The notes under the pieces were generated by a model that saw only the letters and a list, made by a program, of their open reading frames with translations, had not been told where the DNA came from and searched no databases. From a virus (taxonomy: Duplodnaviria > Caudoviricetes), in the IMG/VR virus record IMGVR_UViG_3300037418_002116: a stretch of DNA of 64,000 bases. One strand, written 5' to 3'. This document shows, one piece after another, positions 6,912-62,355 of this stretch. The first letter of the stretch is position 1. The number at the start of each line of letters is the position of its first letter. The translations under genes were made by a program, and so were the position numbers.

Positions 6912-7464
6912 CTAATCTCGCCTCATAATTTGGTTGCCGATAGCTAGGGCAAGACAGATAAAAACGGCAACGCCAACAAATCCCAAATATATCCATTGTG
7001 CAATTTGAGAAACAGCGATTATGTATATGAAACCGGCAGATAGAAATATGACAGCCGAGCCGATTAGAAAGGCTTTAAGGTCTTTGTTCATTGCAAACCA
7101 GTTTCTATACCTTGTTTAAAAGCATGGATGATTTCACCCATCTTCTGTGAGGCTCCAATTGGATTGAACAAAAAGGACAACACAATCAAGAACGCCGCAA
7201 GTGCTAAAATGTCTCTCATTTTTCTTTCTTTCCCCATGCAAACCATTCATGGTCATACTTATCAACGCATTGGTTTGGCCATTCGGCATCTTGTTTGTAG
7301 ATCAATTGTGGAATGAATTGTGGATATTCGTGATTAAGTTCTAGACATGCAATGCGCATGTGATCATTCCATTGATCATCTTTAAGCTTAGTAATTTCAT
7401 ATTTGTTGATGGTGCAGAAAACAAAAAGCAGGACGCACCAAAACCCAAGAACAAAGTGTTTCAC
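6912..7464 (-). CDS. Three small membrane-protein CDSs (about 6912-7091, 7088-7219, 7216-7464)
   Basis: Hand translation gives MNKDLKAFLIGSAVIFLSAG... and MRDILALAAFLIVLSFLF...; the third is in the ORF track. All have hydrophobic segments and ATGA-type overlaps. Confidence 0.6.
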
Positions 7465-8983: not shown

Positions 8984-9226
8984 TCAAATTTCCCCCAAAT
9001 TACCTGAATTGATTGTAGAACCGTGATTGTTCTTTTTGATGCGGTTGAGCAAGCTCTTCCAACCGTTATCGGTCTTGATCCCGCCAACATCATGCACCAT
9101 TGAAGCATTAGTGATGATTTGAAATTTGTCTGGATTTGCTTTAAGGTATTCTTCACGCTCTGCAATCGTCATTTCCAGCGTGATTTCTTCCTGTGTATTT
9201 CTGTCTTCGAACGTGTAGAAAGGCAT
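8984..9226 (-). CDS. Small FmdB-like protein conserved in T4-like phages
   Basis: MPFYTF...EREEYLKANP N-terminus and position upstream of phoH. Confidence 0.55.
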   Translation of the reverse strand: MPFYTFEDRNTQEEITLEMTIAEREEYLKANPDKFQIITNASMVHDVGGIKTDNGWKSLLNRIKKNNHGSTINSGNLGEI

Positions 9227-9354
9227 TATGTCCTTGTTTTTCCTTATAAAAATGAATATGCCCCTACATTACCTCTCGAAAGGCAATGGGAAGGGGCATT
9301 GGGTCAATATTCTGTTTTCATGTCTATATTTATAATCCTGCCGGGCACACCGAT

Positions 9355-10463
9355 TTATTCCATATCGATGGAACGCCATGAGGGACGCTTGAAATTCACA
9401 AATTGTTTTGTGGAGGCATTAAAAAAATAATTTTTAACGGCGTTGTTGAGGATATCCCACTCAAACACAACGCATTCGTTCACATGCATACGAGACGGTA
9501 TCGGATATTGAATCGCAATATTGTTGTTCAGTCGATCCGAAAACAATCCCTTGGCACCGGCATTTTGAAATCCTCGAAATTTCAGATTTACCATCAGCCT
9601 AAAATTGGGTCTGATCCAGTCATCCGAGCCAGAAAGATTTTTCTTCACAAATTTCTGACATTGCTCTTGGCAGCACTCCATATCGGGTATCATGTTGATA
9701 GGGAACATTTTAACGGAATGTGCGTGGATATAGAATTGTTCTTTTTCGTTGAAATTACAATAAACGGAATTCTCAAGTCCCACATTGTCAAGCATCGTTT
9801 TGGCGGAATTCGCAAACTTACATGCGTTTCCACCATCGGCATCCCAAGCGAGAATTTGGAATTTTTCATCTTCCGTTGGAAGCCAGCTTTTTATGGTTGT
9901 GATAACTTTTGAAGCCACGTCGGTTTACCAATTCGTGTTGATGCTGTTGTATCGACCAAAACTTTGGCCGTTTCGATTTTGCCATAGGCATATGTGATTT
10001 CTATCACATAACAATGATCTATTATCATCCTTCCAAGCCTGCTGAAAGTCCTACCAGAATCAGTCGGTATCAACAATCGTATTGGGCGATTATCAATGTC
10101 AACGAACTTGTATTGGCGCTCTTTCCCATTGGAAGCAGTTGTATATTTGTATTTAAAATGAACAAGCGTTGTAACCGAAAGTTCTTTTTCCCAACGTTTC
10201 ACCAGTTTTTGCAAAATACTTTTGTTTTGAATGACTTGTAGCAACACACACTCTCGTGTGTATCGGCGGTCGTCACCTAAATCAAAGCAGACCAATGTTT
10301 TGGCGGGCGGCAGGCGGTTTAAATCATGGTAATGGACGCCACCATTTTCTGTCACATGGACAAGAGAATTATACGTGTATGCCCAAAATTGTACAGAATG
10401 AGGCACCACGAAATCGCTTGGTGGTTGCATAGAATCTCGAAAATTTGAAAGTATAAATAACAT
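9355..10463 (-). CDS. Two hypothetical CDSs (9355-9918, 9891-10463)
   Basis: Long co-oriented overlapping ORFs; no recognisable motif. Confidence 0.5.
10452..10459 (+). promoter_or_regulatory. T4-type late promoter TATAAATA
   Basis: Exact consensus, 25 nt upstream of the cell-wall hydrolase start, with a TAGGAG RBS between. Confidence 0.85.
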
Positions 10464-44200: not shown

Positions 44201-47200
44201 GATACGGAAAAAGGTCGGGTAAAATGTCGCCCAATTTGCCGAGCGCCATGCGAAAAGCATATATTGTCTGGCCTTTTTCGTCAAGTTCCTCGGAAAGCCG
44301 GTCCAATTCCTTGGCGGCTCTCCATTGCGTGTCGTTCTTGGACTCATAGAGGCGCTTGGTGAAGTCGGTATCATAATAGCCGGTCATTGTTTCTCTCACG
44401 GTTTCAGAAGTTCGGCAAAGCGCTCATAGTAAATAGCGACTTCGGCATAGCCGGAAGAATGTCCTTCATCCCAAGCCAGTCGCCAGAGAACATCACGCTT
44501 CGGATGATCGGAAAGGCCGTTGTCTTCTTCCAGAACCTTCCTGAACTTATCCGTCATTTCCTGTTCCGCCGAACGACGGATTCGGCGCTCTTCTGCCGTG
44601 GCACCGGACTTGAACGGAACCGGATTTTCGAATTCCCCGGCCTGTATTCTTTCATACGTTGTTTTGTCGCTCATTCCGTTCAATTCCTTTTGCTGATTTT
44701 CACTGACAACAATTCCGCCGACAGTTCGCCACAATCCATCAGAACCACGTCTCATTTTTCACTGTCCCTCATATTTCGAGTTGCAACCACCACGCAACAA
44801 ACCGTCCTGCCATGAACGAACGGTATGTGGTGCTTTGTACGCATCATAGACGGCCATTACCGAATTCTGGTTGAAATATTCAGGAAACGGTTCGTCATAT
44901 TGACCATCCACCATGCGATCATGGTCAAAGAAAGTGACCACACCATCATCGTGAAGCGTTGCCGTAATGCGCTGGCCATTGGCCGTGTACTTGCGACCGG
45001 TATTGAAATGAATTGTTTTCATTAGTTTTCCATATCCTTGGCGTACCGGACCTTGCCGTCATTATCGATGTAGAGCGGCGTATTGTGCGGATTGCCTTCC
45101 TTGACCCACTTGCGGGCGGCGGCAGAACCAAGCTTGACGACGTAAGGATAGACGATTTCGCCTTCCTCGTCGGTCGTTTCCTTGGCTTTCATTTCGTTGT
45201 ATTCCTTCACCGACATTTCGGTAACTGAATACCTGTAATCGCCCTTGTAATAGATCACGTACATTTCACGACTCCCTCTTCCAAATCTTGCAGACAATAT
45301 CGCCCGGCACTGCTTCACTCACATCCACGCCAGAGTCGAACAAAGCCTGTACATCAACCTTGGTCATCTTTGTGGACGAAAATTCCCGGCCAAGCTGCAT
45401 ATTCCGCCAGTCATAGACTTCGTACAGATTGTCGCTAATCGGACGAATTTTCATCCACTTCCTAGGTGGATATGCCGGAAGCGGCGCAACCTTAAGGAAA
45501 TCATACTTTCCCATTTCACACCTCTCTTAATCCTGCCGCATACCGGGAAAGTTCGGGTGGGCAGCAACCCAAGCCTGTGCTTCCTCTTTGGTGGCGAAGG
45601 GCTTGCGGCCAAGACCGACAGTGCCATCCGGATGTTCGATAGTGTAGCCTTCCGAAACCAGCGTCCAGCCGGCCTTTTCGGCTTCGTTACGCCACGGCAG
45701 CGAACCATAAATCGAAGCAGTTCGGCCAGTCGTGTGGCGATAAAAACGATTTTCGATAACAATTCCCATTAGCGAAAGCTCCTGTAATAGGCATCCTCTT
45801 CGGCATGAAGCTCCATGGCTTCCATGTCGGACCAGTAAGCGTCTTCCTCGGAAGTGATCACCTTTTCATCCTGATACGCCTGATAGGCGGCATCGAAGGC
45901 GAGGAAATCACGGTATTCCTGAGTCAGAGGGAACATGACACGCTCCTAAACCAATCTTCATCATTCATATAATGAAAATATTGGAGCGTGTCAAGGGAGA
46001 ATTTTGATTATTGCAATTTTTTAAACGGCATATGCCGTCGCTTTGATCGCTTTTTCGATTTCCGACAGCGTAAAGTACATGGCATAGATTTGAGAACCAA
46101 CATCATCACGTTCATTCCCGAATTCCATGAGCGTATACTTTTGCCCAAGCTTCTTAAGTTCCAATTCCGTTTGTCGTTTTTCCGCCTGTAGCTCCGTCAA
46201 AGACATGCCAATGTAGACGTTTTTAACACCCACTAAATTCCTCCACCATCCTCGTTTGTTTCGTGTCTCATTTTTTCGAGCAAATCGAGACACCATTTCG
46301 GTGTTCGTTCGTTCGTGAAAGAACCAGCCGGACCAAAGGACATAACGATTGGCGGTTTGCCAATCGATTCCCTGATAAGGTAGGCCAATTCTCCCTCTTT
46401 CAGTAAAATTACTCTGCCCATGGGTCTGGCGGTCCTTCGCCGGGATTGTCCCGTGCCTGTAGATGCTGGTAAGCATCCTCTAGATAGCGCTGGAAAGAAT
46501 AGCGCTCCGTTGGGTCCGTGCGCTCATACTTTGCCTGTGCCAGCCGGAAAGCTTCGACATCAGTTGGTGTATACGGTTTCGGGTTCATCTGAATGCCCTT
46601 CGAATAAGTTCGTATTGATCCTCTTGGCGTGTCGCCAAGGTTTTTCGCCACAGAACATGGCCACGCCAGCGCCAGACACGATAGATGATCGTGAATGGAG
46701 CCCAATCGTAGCCATCGACTGATTCCGGAATTTTTCGGATTCCGAACCAGCGTTCACGTTTTGATGTGATCAATGGACGACCTTTCCTGTTTCCTTTTCA
46801 CGAATGAATGCGGCACGACCATGGGTCTGCCAATCCCGGCAAGCCTCACGGGCCTCTCCAATTGTGGTACAATCCTCACGGAATGTCGCATTTTCGTGTT
46901 CGAATCCGTTCCATTCGGCACCCCAAATTTCATACTTCGGATTCTGGTAGTCAGCCGTCATTCTCCAAACTCCAAAAATGCAGCAACGACGCCGCAACCA
47001 CGATCTTCCTTCACCGGCCTGTAACCGGCTCGTTCGCCGTCCCAAAAATCGGGATCAAGCAATTCATCACCATACACCATCTGTTCGAAGGTGACGACAC
47101 GACCGGTCTTGCTCGATTTCACACCAAATTTGGAGGGAAAGCTACCGCCGAACTGCTTCGCAAGCCCATACAGGCAATGAGTTTTCTTCACCCATCGCAA

Positions 47201-57509: not shown

Positions 57510-58118
57510 TTAGTTGTTCACCACAAGTTTCAGCTTAGGTTGCTGAACATTCAATGTGCCGGGTGCAAATCCCGGTAGGAACTGTTCCCAAAATGCGTCG
57601 TCAATCGTCATCGGATACCGCTTACGAATTTCGAGCATCTGATAGAATGATGGTTCAAAGATTTTTTTCTTTGGAGCCCATCTACCAACTGGCAAAGATG
57701 CACCTTTCATGAGATTGCATGAAGGACATGAAGCCACAACATTTTCCCATTCGGTCTTACCACCTTTAGCTCTTGGAATCACATGGTCATCCGTGATGGA
57801 ATTCGATTGATTCCTTTGAGTAGTCAAAGGCATATCGCACCAGAAGCACTTACCAGAATCACGATAGTACAAGGTTTCCTTGTTCAACTGAATCTTGTTC
57901 GTGAATTTTCTGGCTGAATTGGTAACGATCACTGATGGCCAACGCAAATCCGTTCTTGACGGAGTCAAGATTGGCCGATCATACCAATGCACAACATTGT
58001 TCTTACCAAGCAGATATCCCACAATGGCGTCACGTGCCGGAATAAGCGACAACGGAAACACCGAATGCGGCATAAAATTCTTGTTCAGGACCAATGTTCT
58101 CAAATTTACTTCTGACAC
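57510..58118 (-). CDS. HNH endonuclease (McrA-like)
   Basis: RDSGKCFWC...TDDHVIPRAKGGKTEWENVVASCPSCNLMKG. Confidence 0.9.
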   Translation of the reverse strand: MSEVNLRTLVLNKNFMPHSVFPLSLIPARDAIVGYLLGKNNVVHWYDRPILTPSRTDLRWPSVIVTNSARKFTNKIQLNKETLYYRDSGKCFWCDMPLTTQRNQSNSITDDHVIPRAKGGKTEWENVVASCPSCNLMKGASLPVGRWAPKKKIFEPSFYQMLEIRKRYPMTIDDAFWEQFLPGFAPGTLNVQQPKLKLVVNN

Positions 58119-58550: not shown

Positions 58551-59855
58551 TTGCGAATGAAGCAAGTTAAGAATCCCCACGATTTCTACCGCATGGCAAA
58601 TGCCATGTTCGGTGAGACTCGTGACGTTAGCCGCCTAGGTTGGGCGGAAATCGAAGCCATTTCGGTTACGAACGATGTTCGTGTTCCGGGTTGGGTTCGT
58701 GCTTCCGCTACCGGCAAGGGTAAGAATAAGGTCTACTCGACCGTTCCTCCCAAGGCCACGTCCGATGTCAACACGCTGAACGGTGCGGTTCCGGCTAATA
58801 AGCCGAAGGTCCAGTATTACGTCAAGGTTTCGCCTCGTAATCTGGAAACCAACAAGTTCATGTCGGTGAAGGATGATCCGATTGCACAGGCTATGACCGC
58901 CGATTTGGAGTCCGCTCTGAATGCGTCGGCTTCGCCGGTTGCCATCGATGCCGCCACGGTCGATCCGGAAAAGCTCTTTTCGGATATGGCTGACCTTGTG
59001 TCGCTAGTCGTTGATAACGTCGCCAAGGCGCTGCTTATCTATGGCGGCGGCGGCACGGGCAAGAGCTTTGGTGTCTATGAAGCTCTTAGACAGGCTGGCT
59101 ACGTTCGGGATGAAGATTTCTTCGTCTACAAGGGCAAGGTCACTCCTGCTTCGCTCTACCAGATCATGTTCATCCACAGGGATGACAACAAGCTTCTGGT
59201 GTTCGATGATGCCGATAGCGCTTGGGAATCCGAAGACTCGGCTATGATCCTTAAGGGCGCTCTCGATACCACGGATATGGAAAACCGTGAAATTTCGTGG
59301 TCCACCAATCGTACCGTCAACGTCGATAAGTGGGACTCGGAAAAGCGGGCCAAGTATGCCGCCGAAATGGACGAACTGCTTGAAAAGCAGGGCGACGATG
59401 AAGAGGAAGACGCCAAGCCGGAATCGGTGACTCCGGAACAGGCGGCGTTGGAGCCGGAAAAGTACTTCAAGGATGGCCGTCCGAAGATGAAGGCTTTCCA
59501 GAAGAAGGAAAAGGTTTTCCGGATGCCTGCGAAGTTTGTCTTCCATGGTCGTGTCATCTTCATTTCGAACAAGCCTCGTTCGGACTTCGATAAGGACGTT
59601 CTGACTCGGTGCTACAAGATCGACATGAGCTTGACGCCGGAACAGATGTTCATGCGGATGGAAAAGCTTCTGCCCTACATGGTGCCGGAAGTTCCGGAAG
59701 CCACGATGGATTTGAAGCATCGGGTTCTGGTGACCTTGAAGGCTCTGTACAAGTCGGGCAATCTCGAAAACCCGAGTCTTCGGACCTTCGATGCGGCTAT
59801 CAGGATTGCCGCAAGGGGCAAGCCGAATTGGGCAGACCTTCTCCGTTACACCTGA
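58551..59855 (+). CDS. AAA+/SF3-like P-loop ATPase
   Basis: LLIYGGGGTGKS Walker A, LLVFDDAD Walker B, VIFISN sensor, TRC arginine finger; strongly biased codon usage. Confidence 0.8.
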   Translation: MRMKQVKNPHDFYRMANAMFGETRDVSRLGWAEIEAISVTNDVRVPGWVRASATGKGKNKVYSTVPPKATSDVNTLNGAVPANKPKVQYYVKVSPRNLETNKFMSVKDDPIAQAMTADLESALNASASPVAIDAATVDPEKLFSDMADLVSLVVDNVAKALLIYGGGGTGKSFGVYEALRQAGYVRDEDFFVYKGKVTPASLYQIMFIHRDDNKLLVFDDADSAWESEDSAMILKGALDTTDMENREISWSTNRTVNVDKWDSEKRAKYAAEMDELLEKQGDDEEEDAKPESVTPEQAALEPEKYFKDGRPKMKAFQKKEKVFRMPAKFVFHGRVIFISNKPRSDFDKDVLTRCYKIDMSLTPEQMFMRMEKLLPYMVPEVPEATMDLKHRVLVTLKALYKSGNLENPSLRTFDAAIRIAARGKPNWADLLRYT

Positions 59856-59870
59856 TCGGTGTCGCAACAA

Positions 59871-59898
59871 GAAAGGCCCGGATCACTCCGGGCCTTTC
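59871..59898. terminator. Bidirectional terminator hairpin
   Basis: GAAAGGCCCG-N8-CGGGCCTTTC between convergent transcripts. Confidence 0.8.
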
Positions 59899-59899
59899 G

Positions 59900-60139
59900 C
59901 TTTATCGGTCTTTCCCGATTGTCCGATAGAACGATCTTCCGGTTTAGAAACGATTCTCCGTTACCACAGATTCAAACCCGCTCATTCGGGATGTTTCCAT
60001 ATTGGTAAGGACCACGAATGCTTCCGGTGGATTGGAGAGTCCAGTCAGGACGAAAGGATAAACAACCGACTGGAAATCCACGAGCTTCTATCTGCCATCC
60101 GTTACTTCTACCCGTGCCACAGATGGCTAGGCACGATGC
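59900..60139 (-). ncRNA. Candidate pseudoknotted structured RNA
   Basis: H-type pseudoknot and multibranch helices; see findings. Confidence 0.45.
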
Positions 60140-60298
60140 TCACACACGAAACCATAGCGCATAGGCGCACAAAACTCCATACAGGACATACCACGTCCAA
60201 GCTGGCGGGCGGAAGTCAATACCGCCATCCATCCACTCGACCGTGAAGCCGGTCGGTTCATTCAACTTCTTTTTCAGTTTCTTGATATCGTATTTCAT
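60140..60298 (-). CDS. 52-aa membrane-anchored peptide
   Basis: MKYDIKKLKKKLNE...WTWYVLYGVLCAYALWFRV. Confidence 0.55.
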   Translation of the reverse strand: MKYDIKKLKKKLNEPTGFTVEWMDGGIDFRPPAWTWYVLYGVLCAYALWFRV

Positions 60299-60304
60299 GG
60301 CCAT

Positions 60305-60898
60305 TCAATTCGCTATGGCCTTACCAAGGCCCGGAATAATCTCTAGAAGGCGCTCCGTCTCGACAAAGAACCACACCTTCGCTCTACCGTTTGGCGTGGC
60401 CATTTCGGTATATGCTTGCTCGTCATACGCCACAGCAGCGGTGGAATGGGTCACACAATCCACCAGACACACGGCGATCTTGGAATCTTTGGTTCGCATC
60501 CCCGGCGATGCACCAACGGGCAAAACCACGTCGGCGTTTTGCCGTAGCCATTCCTCTTTGGTCATATCAGGCGGATTGATGTAATAGCTCATGCGATTCT
60601 CTTCCTTTTCTTCAAAACCGATGATGTGCTTTTTCTCGAATTCAATCAGCATGTTAGGGAACAAAATCCCGGCGAAGATGAATGGTTGATTCATCAACAC
60701 CCCTGCGAATTTGTTGCCGTTGATTTTGGTAACCTCAACCCACATGCGTTCGTCGCCGTCTTCACCCACAGAAAGAAAACAGAGCTTCACATAGTCGCCT
60801 ATGCGAATTGCAGCCTTTTCAGCGTTTGATGGTATCTCAAAGGTGTGTGGCGACCGATTGTGAGCCCGAACGCCATCCAAGAGCCTGTAGAACTGCAT
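60305..60898 (-). CDS. Two-domain hypothetical protein (N-terminus DUF2314-like) with internal start at 60592
   Basis: GDYVKLCF...ERMWVEVT...GVLMNQP; internal AAGGAAGAG-N6-ATG. Confidence 0.6.
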   Translation of the reverse strand: MQFYRLLDGVRAHNRSPHTFEIPSNAEKAAIRIGDYVKLCFLSVGEDGDERMWVEVTKINGNKFAGVLMNQPFIFAGILFPNMLIEFEKKHIIGFEEKEENRMSYYINPPDMTKEEWLRQNADVVLPVGASPGMRTKDSKIAVCLVDCVTHSTAAVAYDEQAYTEMATPNGRAKVWFFVETERLLEIIPGLGKAIAN

Positions 60899-60905
60899 TG
60901 GAGCC

Positions 60906-62253
60906 TCACAGAAGCGTTGCGGCGGGTTGATTGGCCTTTGCAGCCTCTTGTCTTGCCTTGCGATCTAGAAGCTGTTCTTGAACCGCTATAGCGACGGATG
61001 TAATCCGTGACTCGATGTCGGAAAGCTCATTCAGCATTTCCGTGTGCTGGTCACGTGCCAATTCATAGGTTCCGGCTTTTGCCGTCTGATAGTCACGCCC
61101 ATGTGGCGTTCCTTCCCGCAAGAGCCCCTGTAGCGTGTGAACAGCGTCCAGAGTCTTGATATAGTGCGCCATCAACGAGTCACCGTCTGTGCCGTTCAAA
61201 TTAAGAACGGGAAACGCTATCTTGTTCGGTTGGTTCATTTGCTTTCCTCCTTTTCAATCCCTTTTCGGCTAAGGCGAAACCGCCCCTAATTTCCTTTAAG
61301 CGTCGTATCGACATGCCGTCATAGGTTTCATAGAGCTTGAACCACTTCCATGCTGGCGGGTTCGACAATTCCATCAGTTGCAGGACAAGCTTTTTCTTTT
61401 CCTGCATCAGCTATCAGCCTTCCTCGATACCACGTTCCGAAAAGTCGTTTTCGGCATCGAAAACTTTAATGATCCGGCCTTCCTTGGCGGCGACAACATG
61501 AGCATCAGCGACCTTCGCCATATGGTACAGTTGTGCCTTGGCAATTTCCTTGGCCTTGTCCGTACCAGTTTCGAACGCCAGAACGATGATATCAGCGATT
61601 TTGTTCCACGACGGAGTCATGTCAACCGTGCCGACTTCGATTTCGGCATTTTCCTTCAATCGAGGATCGTCGGGCTCAACATAAGTTTTTATGCCATACT
61701 TATCCGGTTCGCCAAGCTGGACTTGTTCCGGATGAAGTTTGCTGCCGTAATAAGTTGCATTCATTGATCGACTCCTATTTTCCCTAATATAATGTTTCTA
61801 TTGAAGAAAATCAAGTCAATAATAACGCCATTTTTCGTAGGGAAACTTGTCGTCATTGGCTTTCAGGAAGGCGATACCGTCTGCCGTAACCGGGCGATAG
61901 CTGCGAAGCGCATGACCATGAATGTGACCGCCATTCTTGGAAATCGAGCCATCCCAATTTTTCCATTCGAAAAAGCGCAAAAATTTGTCACTGAATTTTT
62001 TCGGTGGCGAGCCTCGGCGTAGTGGCCCAAGGTGCCCATCGTCAATCAAGCGCTGAACGTCCGGATTATCCATCCCCACGCCACCTTCACAATGGAAGTA
62101 CAGGCCACCCGACAATGGTCCCTCTTTACGCTCCAAATCGGCAATAGAAATGTAACCGAGTCGCCAGCCAATTCGATACCACGAATAGCATCCAACGGCA
62201 CGGCGTAAGAGCTTGATCCGCCTCCCAAGTGATTTGTGTTTATCAGCACTCAT
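60906..62253 (-). CDS. Hypothetical CDSs (60906-61238, 61201-61407, 61414-61764, 61816-62253)
   Basis: RBS-led ORFs behind promoters near 61815 and 62303. Confidence 0.65.
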
Positions 62254-62355
62254 TTCCAATTCTCCTATTATATTGAATATATTGATTATTTTTCGATTTG
62301 TCAAGAAAAAAGGGAGCCCGAAAGCTCCCTTGAAATTCACGATTCGTTAACCGCT

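Follow-up and report, generated by a model that had tools for sequence, protein, structure and literature searches.

A probable structured RNA domain, with a pseudoknot at its 5′ end, in the tail of an early phage operon

Introduction

Several bacterial sRNAs, such as CpxQ, SroC and DapZ, are derived from 3′-UTRs and share the terminator of the mRNA. Phages are in turn turning out to carry many structured RNAs of unknown function. The element described here lies on the minus strand of a 64,000-nt stretch of DNA (the window) from an uncultured soil T4-like jumbo phage. Like the 3′-UTR-derived sRNAs, it lies beyond the final stop codon of its operon, shares the operon terminator, lacks a private promoter and shows stronger conservation than the adjacent coding sequence. 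Unlike them, it is phage-encoded, is about 275 nt long, and combines a pseudoknot with a three-way junction where theirs consist of a short seed and a terminator. With GOLLD and ROOL (both in Rfam) and with RNA C and RNA D of T4 it shares a phage origin, an unknown function and a complex conserved fold with a pseudoknot. However, it is much smaller than GOLLD or ROOL and has no Rfam match; it is also not tRNA-shaped, does not lie beside tRNA genes and lacks its own promoter.

The reading that we favour, with modest confidence, is that window positions 60139 to ~59862 (−) encode a structured non-coding RNA domain of ~275 nt with which an early operon transcript ends, and that this domain outlives the mRNA body and binds a protein or RNA partner as a scaffold.

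Results

The element and its one relative

One relative was reached, the IMG/VR contig IMGVR_UViG_3300044658_000070 (L001/L114), through a convergent gene whose 434-aa protein is 89–90% identical. The RNA lies at L001 4616–4381, equal to L114 9107–9342, and is found by a single-sequence covariance model built from the window only (R1) with 173.6 bits and an E-value of ~1e-53.

In the window, no credible ORF is present on the minus strand from 60139 down to ~59862. Folding of the 281-nt region gave a minimum free energy (MFE) of −105.3 kcal/mol (z = −3.6 against dinucleotide shuffles), with z-scores that are alike on the two strands (−3.6 and −3.7). The RNA strand is the minus strand, since the G-U pairs (four in the window, two in the relative) would become A·C mismatches on the plus strand, and plus-strand transcripts of the 434-aa gene meet the common terminator ahead of the element. 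From its 5′ end the RNA is proposed to comprise an H-type pseudoknot, one base, helix P1, a three-way junction with arms P2–P3 and P4–P5, then P7, and finally the intrinsic terminator.

A pseudoknot next to the stop codon

The sequence-only reading placed an H-type pseudoknot directly after a UGA on the minus strand, and the knot was found there, with both stems kept in the relative through compensatory changes. Its parts are as follows.

60130–60135 (−): S1 5′ arm, CGUGCC; in alignment A6, pairs 5–27 and 7–25 have both bases replaced in the relative (C-G to A-U and U-A to C-G)
60113–60118 (−): S1 3′ arm, GGCACG; helix 1, six pairs, 100% paired, two double changes
60119–60127 (−): S2 5′ arm, GCCAUCUGU, inside the S1 loop; helix 2, nine pairs, 100% paired, one double change (C-G to U-A) and one U-G to C-G
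60094–60102 (−): S2 3′ arm, ACGGAUGGC; from folding, consensus fold and covariation count

S2 is formed by 9 bp between the S1 loop, GCCAUCUG(U), and (A)CGGAUGGC (60127–60119/60102–60094, −). The isolated hairpin energies are −10.4 kcal/mol for S1 and −14.0 kcal/mol for S2. The two stems have no nucleotides in common and can therefore coexist only as an H-type knot, whose loops measure 2 nt, 0–1 nt and 10–11 nt. A knot of 6 Watson–Crick pairs plus 9 bp arose in 14 of 3000 dinucleotide shuffles of the element (~0.5% per 237 nt), and about four such sites occur on the 64-kb minus strand, so that the sequence of a single genome is only suggestive. What raises the knot above chance is the set of changes in the relative: two double changes in S1, one in S2 together with one G-U to G-C, two plus one in P2, and six in P3.

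The UGA of a 54-aa ORF occupies 60142–60140 (−), and S1 starts 4 nt later. The stop codon stands exactly 4 nt ahead of S1 in both phages, as UGA in the window and as UAG in the relative. A ribosome terminating at this stop would need to open S1 or the knot. With two sequences compared, the identical spacing may reflect function or merely compact gene packing.

The fold 3′ of the knot

The remainder of the element resolves into the following predicted features, listed 5′ to 3′ along the RNA except that the two strands of P1 are given together.

60086–60092 (−): P1 5′ strand, GAUAGAA, of a candidate long-range helix closing the three-way junction; RNAalifold consensus, invariant in both sequences
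59925–59931 (−): P1 3′ strand, UUCUAUC; RNAalifold consensus, invariant in both sequences
60027–60081 (−): P2–P3 arm; helices 4 and 5, with two and six double compensatory changes
60012–60026 (−): joiner J2/4, CGGAAGCAUUCGUGG, containing copy 1 of ACCGGAAG; identical at 13 of 15 window bases, one extra G in the relative
59957–60011 (−): P4–P5 arm, UCC/GGA, UUACC/GGUAA, AUGGA/UCUGU, CA/UG and CCCG/CGGG with the invariant loop AAUGAG; helices 6–8
59932–59956 (−): joiner J4/1, GAAUCGUUUCUAAACCGGAAGAUCG, containing copy 2 of ACCGGAAG; 22 of 25 identical
59905–59918 (−): P7 hairpin, UCGG-GAAAGA-CCGA; helix 9, invariant

Two helices of the earlier reading are present in this fold. P2, GUGGAUU/AAUCCAC (60081–60075/60033–60027), shows in the relative two double changes and one G-C to G-U, and P3, UCCAGUC(GG)/(CU)GACUGGA (60074–60066/60048–60040), extends over 9 bp with six double changes. 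The P3 loop has 17 nt, is pyrimidine-rich and keeps CCUUUC, and the one-sided internal loop of the arm, (C)UCUCC, is invariant. In the P4–P5 arm only AUGGA/UCUGU changes (one double and one single-sided change, giving GCGGA/UCUGC in the relative); the remainder is invariant. There is also an invariant candidate pairing between UCUCC (60038–60034) and GGAGA (59959–59955), which would make a second pseudoknot. For P1 (60092–60086/59931–59925), single-sequence MFE folding prefers a competing local hairpin at 59943–59922. P1, UCUCC/GGAGA and the joiners are invariant and so show no covariation; P1 and UCUCC/GGAGA are candidate helices.

Other helices of the earlier reading fared less well. Its GAAA-capped AUG/CAU stem is lost in the relative (G·G, C·A and G-C), and the AUGGA/UCUGU helix covaries instead. 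Five of the six pairs of its CAUUCG/CGAAUG helix are retained in the relative, where a bulge and one disruptive change also occur, and this helix is incompatible with the invariant hairpin CCCG-AAUGAG-CGGG. Five of six pairs are likewise retained in UAUCGG/CCGAUA, for which the local UCGG-GAAAGA-CCGA hairpin is a competitor. Extension of P4 by AUUC/GAAU or by GGAAGC/GUUUCU was rejected, both being broken in the relative, as was an 11-nt tetraloop receptor at UAUGG, which is not conserved there.

CCUUUC is the sole conserved block of the diverged P3 loop (window 60049–60065), and is complementary to GAAAG of the P7 loop (59909–59914) and to GAAAGG of the 5′ arm of the terminator (59893–59898). 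This complementarity could correspond to a loop–loop contact or to an anti-Shine–Dalgarno-like seed.

At L001 4325–4380 (−) (L114 ~9343–9400), the relative carries an extra 8-bp hairpin, UUGAACCA...UGGUUCAA, as a 28-nt insertion between P7 and the terminator, which the window does not have.

Covariation and selection

Across the 61 modelled pairs of alignment A6, 99.2% of cells pair, leaving one unpaired cell, and 12 pairs change on both sides; control counts were 0–2 when the 3′ partners were slid by 1–3 columns, with a mean of 6.0 in shuffles. These counts are a dozen concordant events from two sequences, in an alignment that is model-guided and fitted to the structure, rather than a statistical test of the R-scape kind. 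The compensatory changes in S1, S2, P2, P3 and P5a indicate that the fold is under selection.

Conservation is divided unevenly along the RNA. The 5′ half is just 61% identical between the phages, with its pairs retained. The 3′ half (columns 115–243) is 90% identical, and its unpaired columns 87%. Four-fold degenerate sites of three neighbouring genes are 44%, 56% and 70% identical, so that structure and sequence are both under selection, the 5′ half for shape and the 3′ half for sequence. Junction strands and joiners are nearly invariant, far above the neutral rate. Immediately 5′ of the knot the sequences of the two phages are unrelated: the window has the 54-aa ORF there, whereas in the relative a 205-aa ORF ends at this point.

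These data bear on whether the region might be a functionless spacer that folds by chance between convergent genes. Such a spacer would accord with there being two members only, with z-scores that are alike on both strands and with a chance rate of knots of ~0.5% per 237 nt; but 12 double compensatory changes with a single unpaired cell, and conservation far above that of synonymous sites, make this scarcely credible.

Coding potential and read-through

The earlier reading offered, as one of two options, a stop-readthrough signal that extends a membrane peptide. The ORF concerned is as follows.

60140–60304 (−): 54-aa ORF with a hydrophobic C-terminus; absent from the relative, and hence an indel that separates the 197-aa gene from the RNA; outside the RNA element

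The frame past the UGA is indeed open for 55 codons in the window, a run that we estimate to occur by chance in ~7% of frames. In the relative, the 54-aa ORF is missing, the RNA follows the UAG of the 205-aa ORF (the homologue of the 197-aa gene of the window), and read-through there would add only 12 codons before the frame stops. Indels between the phages through the RNA measure 1, 1, 1, 1, 3 and 6 nt and leave no common frame, and no shared ORF was found over the element in the window and the relative; the element is therefore non-coding. The substitutions track base pairing, not codons.

The H-type knot a few nucleotides after a stop resembles the read-through signal of MuLV gag-pol and the −1 frameshift pseudoknots. 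The differences are that the spacer is 4 nt rather than ~8, that there is no conserved extended ORF, that the upstream ORF is itself not conserved, and that ~190 nt of further conserved structure follows. Of the two features of a read-through signal, a structure close to the stop with constant spacing is present (4 nt, in two sequences) and a conserved coding extension is absent. A recoding stimulator that extends the 54-aa membrane peptide would explain the position of the knot 4 nt after a UGA with 55 open codons beyond it, and the equal spacing after the UAG of the relative, but given a relative with no such ORF and a 12-codon frame, indels that are not multiples of three and changes that follow pairing, it is extremely improbable, and this option of the earlier reading is not supported.

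No homologue of the 54-aa ORF was found in a search of 5.8 billion proteins, which makes it an orphan, and no longer form of the peptide was found among proteins of 29–95 aa. Its start overlaps the preceding stop as TGAATG, and it is cleanly missing from the relative at L001 4613–4620. By this comparison, the ORF appears to be an orphan small membrane-peptide gene whose gain or loss falls precisely at the junction of the 197-aa gene with the RNA.

Operon, promoter and terminator

No sigma-70-like promoter was found in 59700–61000 by a consensus scan, T4-type middle and late promoters being judged by eye only. The signals that frame the transcript are as follows.

62276–62304 (−): early-type promoter TTGACA-17-TATATT; the nearest strong promoter able to transcribe the element, directly after a terminator at 62331–62310
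59862–59898 (−): intrinsic terminator with a 12-bp G+C-rich stem (59898–59887/59882–59871), loop GUGA and tail UUUCUUGUUG; the convergent 434-aa gene, which ends at 59855, uses it as well

Weaker promoter look-alikes occur at 61814–61786 and 61625–61598 (−). Early promoters of the phage are of the sigma-70-like kind: the window holds 15 copies of TTGAC-N16–18-TATANT where 0.31 would be expected. Many of these 15 copies share the spacer motif CTCTNNATATTTC. The relative has the same layout in L114, namely a promoter at 7090–7118, five ORFs, the RNA at 9107–9342, a terminator, and a convergent gene that has a promoter to itself. An early TTGAC-N17-TATAnT promoter thus precedes the RNA by 2.0–2.1 kb in both phages, and the terminator at which the RNA ends is common to the convergent gene. 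Any private promoter would not be conserved, as the two phages have unrelated sequence 5′ of S1. The RNA is the tail of an early operon of ~2.4 kb.

The terminator is conserved in the relative with one C-G to G-C double change (pair 294–305). It was not listed in a simple scan because part of the U run sits within the stem. Its position invites a comparison with terminator-type riboswitches, in which an aptamer lies 5′ of the regulated gene and a conserved alternative pairing is present; the element does not show this combination. A riboswitch-like sensor could nevertheless be imagined to control the terminator and hence antisense transcription into the convergent ATPase-like gene, since a large conserved aptamer-like fold lies directly 5′ of an intrinsic terminator and transcription past it would be antisense to 58551–59855; riboswitch-controlled antisense RNAs exist in Listeria and Clostridium. 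Only a slim chance can be given to this idea, however, as no conserved anti-terminator pairing was found, the relative has its 28-nt hairpin inserted between P7 and the terminator, no minus-strand gene lies downstream (the next gene being convergent), and no riboswitch family matches.

Several neighbouring genes were also noted. The convergent ATPase-like gene of 434 aa occupies 58551–59855, and just past it at 57510–58118 (−) is a free-standing HNH endonuclease gene (Pfam HNH, HNH_5). The 197-aa gene at 60305–60898 (−) encodes a DUF2314-like N-terminal domain, which is widespread in phages. In bacteria, the DUF2314-like domain is linked with Imm33 immunity proteins. Over its full length, including the C-terminal half, the 197-aa protein has matches in only three 90%-identity clusters of a large protein collection, the third homologue (P0002, ENA) being 65% identical. 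Its AlphaFold model is poor (pLDDT 39), and an Atlas search returned the DUF2314-like N-terminus only.

Recurrent A-N-CGGA motifs

The motif A-N-CGGA, which was defined after looking at the sequence, occurs five times in the element against an expectation of 0.25 per 237 nt in the window; none of 2000 shuffles reaches five, and this is the top density on that strand of the window. Two of the five are the ACCGGAAG copies, and all five are kept in the relative. Plain GGA is not significantly enriched (9 seen, 6.1 expected, and at least 9 in 88 of 1000 shuffles). CGGA is seen 5–6 times against 1.5 expected, and most motifs lie at helix ends or in joiners, not in hairpin loops. The second-highest density of A-N-CGGA, 4 in 237 nt, is found at window 44400–44640 (+).

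The repeated GGA-containing motifs, partly single-stranded, together with the 3′ terminator recall the CsrB, RsmY and RsmZ sponges. Unlike these, the element has no Rfam match to CsrB, CsrC, RsmX, RsmY or RsmZ, bears most of its motifs outside hairpin loops, shows no significant enrichment of total GGA and has no promoter of its own. The conservation of the joiners, of the motifs and of CCUUUC suggests either a partner-binding scaffold or internal tertiary contacts.

Searches for further members and for known families

A scan of the window against Rfam 15 (4227 models) at gathering thresholds gave no family for the element, and four tRNAs elsewhere were the only matches. Permissive Rfam scans (E up to 10) of the element in both phages returned unrelated, terminator-driven matches of ≤25 bits and no family common to both. 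Among GenBank phages, blastn with a 1.5-kb query found nothing similar. In IMG/VR, three DNA patterns, either exact or degenerate, retrieved only the relative's contig, and a literature search yielded nothing specific to the element. The 64-kb window holds no paralogue and no significant complementary target.

Model R1, run with scans anchored on proteins (the ATPase, the 197-aa protein, its three-sequence alignment, the terminase and a DUF932 protein), gave no further copy; it had no match in a 97%-complete 247-kb relative (ATPase 39% identical), 41 terminase-related records and 14 loci. Model R2, built from both sequences, found nothing over G002–G006.

A number of candidates were rejected. 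All ten matches of a gapped pattern in metagenome contigs were rejected by the covariance model, and none of three matches of a 20-base pattern in GTDB genomes was upheld by it. The 21-nt ACCGGAAGANCGTTCTATCGG occurs exactly in two Planctomycetaceae MAG contigs (L111 6001–6021 and L113 5685–5705), which are near-identical and read as coding there, and was taken as a chance match. From these comparisons, the element appears to be a new and well-supported RNA motif with two members, confined to a rare lineage.

The other option of the earlier reading was a stand-alone structured ncRNA or ribozyme-like element. A folded non-coding RNA under selection is borne out; it does not stand alone, having no promoter of its own and forming the tail of an operon, and there is no sign of catalysis and no match to a ribozyme family. 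A self-processing ribozyme of an undescribed class, which would free the RNA domain from the mRNA near the stop codon, would suit the ornate fold, the pseudoknot at the extreme 5′ end and the invariant junction nucleotides, and a promoterless RNA needs some release route. Against it, none of the Rfam self-cleaving families matches even at E up to 10, no catalytic core was recognized, and host RNases could do the same job, so we regard it as very unlikely. An HDV-like or hammerhead core was considered and rejected, as in our reading the topology and core sequences do not fit and no permissive Rfam match was obtained.

Discussion

The element is probably a lineage-restricted structured RNA domain or a 3′-UTR-borne ncRNA, for which we infer a role as a partner-binding scaffold. 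The main competing explanation is that it acts purely in cis as a 3′-UTR element, stabilizing the early operon mRNA, shaping termination, or coupling translation termination to folding, with no function in trans. The absence of an own promoter, the direct junction to the last ORF in both phages and the end of the RNA at the terminator are all consistent with this, and the identical 4-nt spacing from stop to S1, kept though the upstream ORFs differ, suits a cis role linked to translation. However, protection of a 3′ end normally takes no more than a terminator hairpin, and ~240 nt of conserved junction sequence, 87–90% identical, exceeds what stabilization needs; moreover, the extra 28-nt hairpin of the relative between P7 and the terminator indicates that core and terminator are not tightly coupled. 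We therefore consider a purely cis role rather unlikely, and prefer the stable, partner-binding RNA domain to it with modest confidence.

For the partner-binding domain, we hypothesize that the 5′ knot and the 3′ terminator would act as protective caps, so that the domain survives longer than the body of the mRNA. It might be clipped off as a 3′-UTR-derived RNA or be kept as a stable tail, and would bind a protein or RNA partner through the invariant single-stranded joiners, with their five A-N-CGGA motifs, and the CU-rich loops CCUUUC and UCUCC.

A more speculative proposal, which we consider unlikely, is that the element represents a phage RNA of a new class, one that arises as a messenger tail and matures under translation control. 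Ribosomes terminating at the stop codon would gate folding or release, the latter by a host RNase or by self-cleavage, and the freed, knot-capped RNA would use its A-N-CGGA sites to decoy or scaffold a protein of the host or of the phage.

The element is distinctive in being embedded in the 3′ end of an operon and in having a covarying pseudoknot that abuts the stop codon. Should its action be confined to cis, the mRNA tail that it forms would be unusually elaborate. If it is released and stable, it would extend the idea of 3′-UTR-derived RNAs to large folded phage RNAs, and would offer a compact target (~240 nt) for structure work and for the search for its partners.
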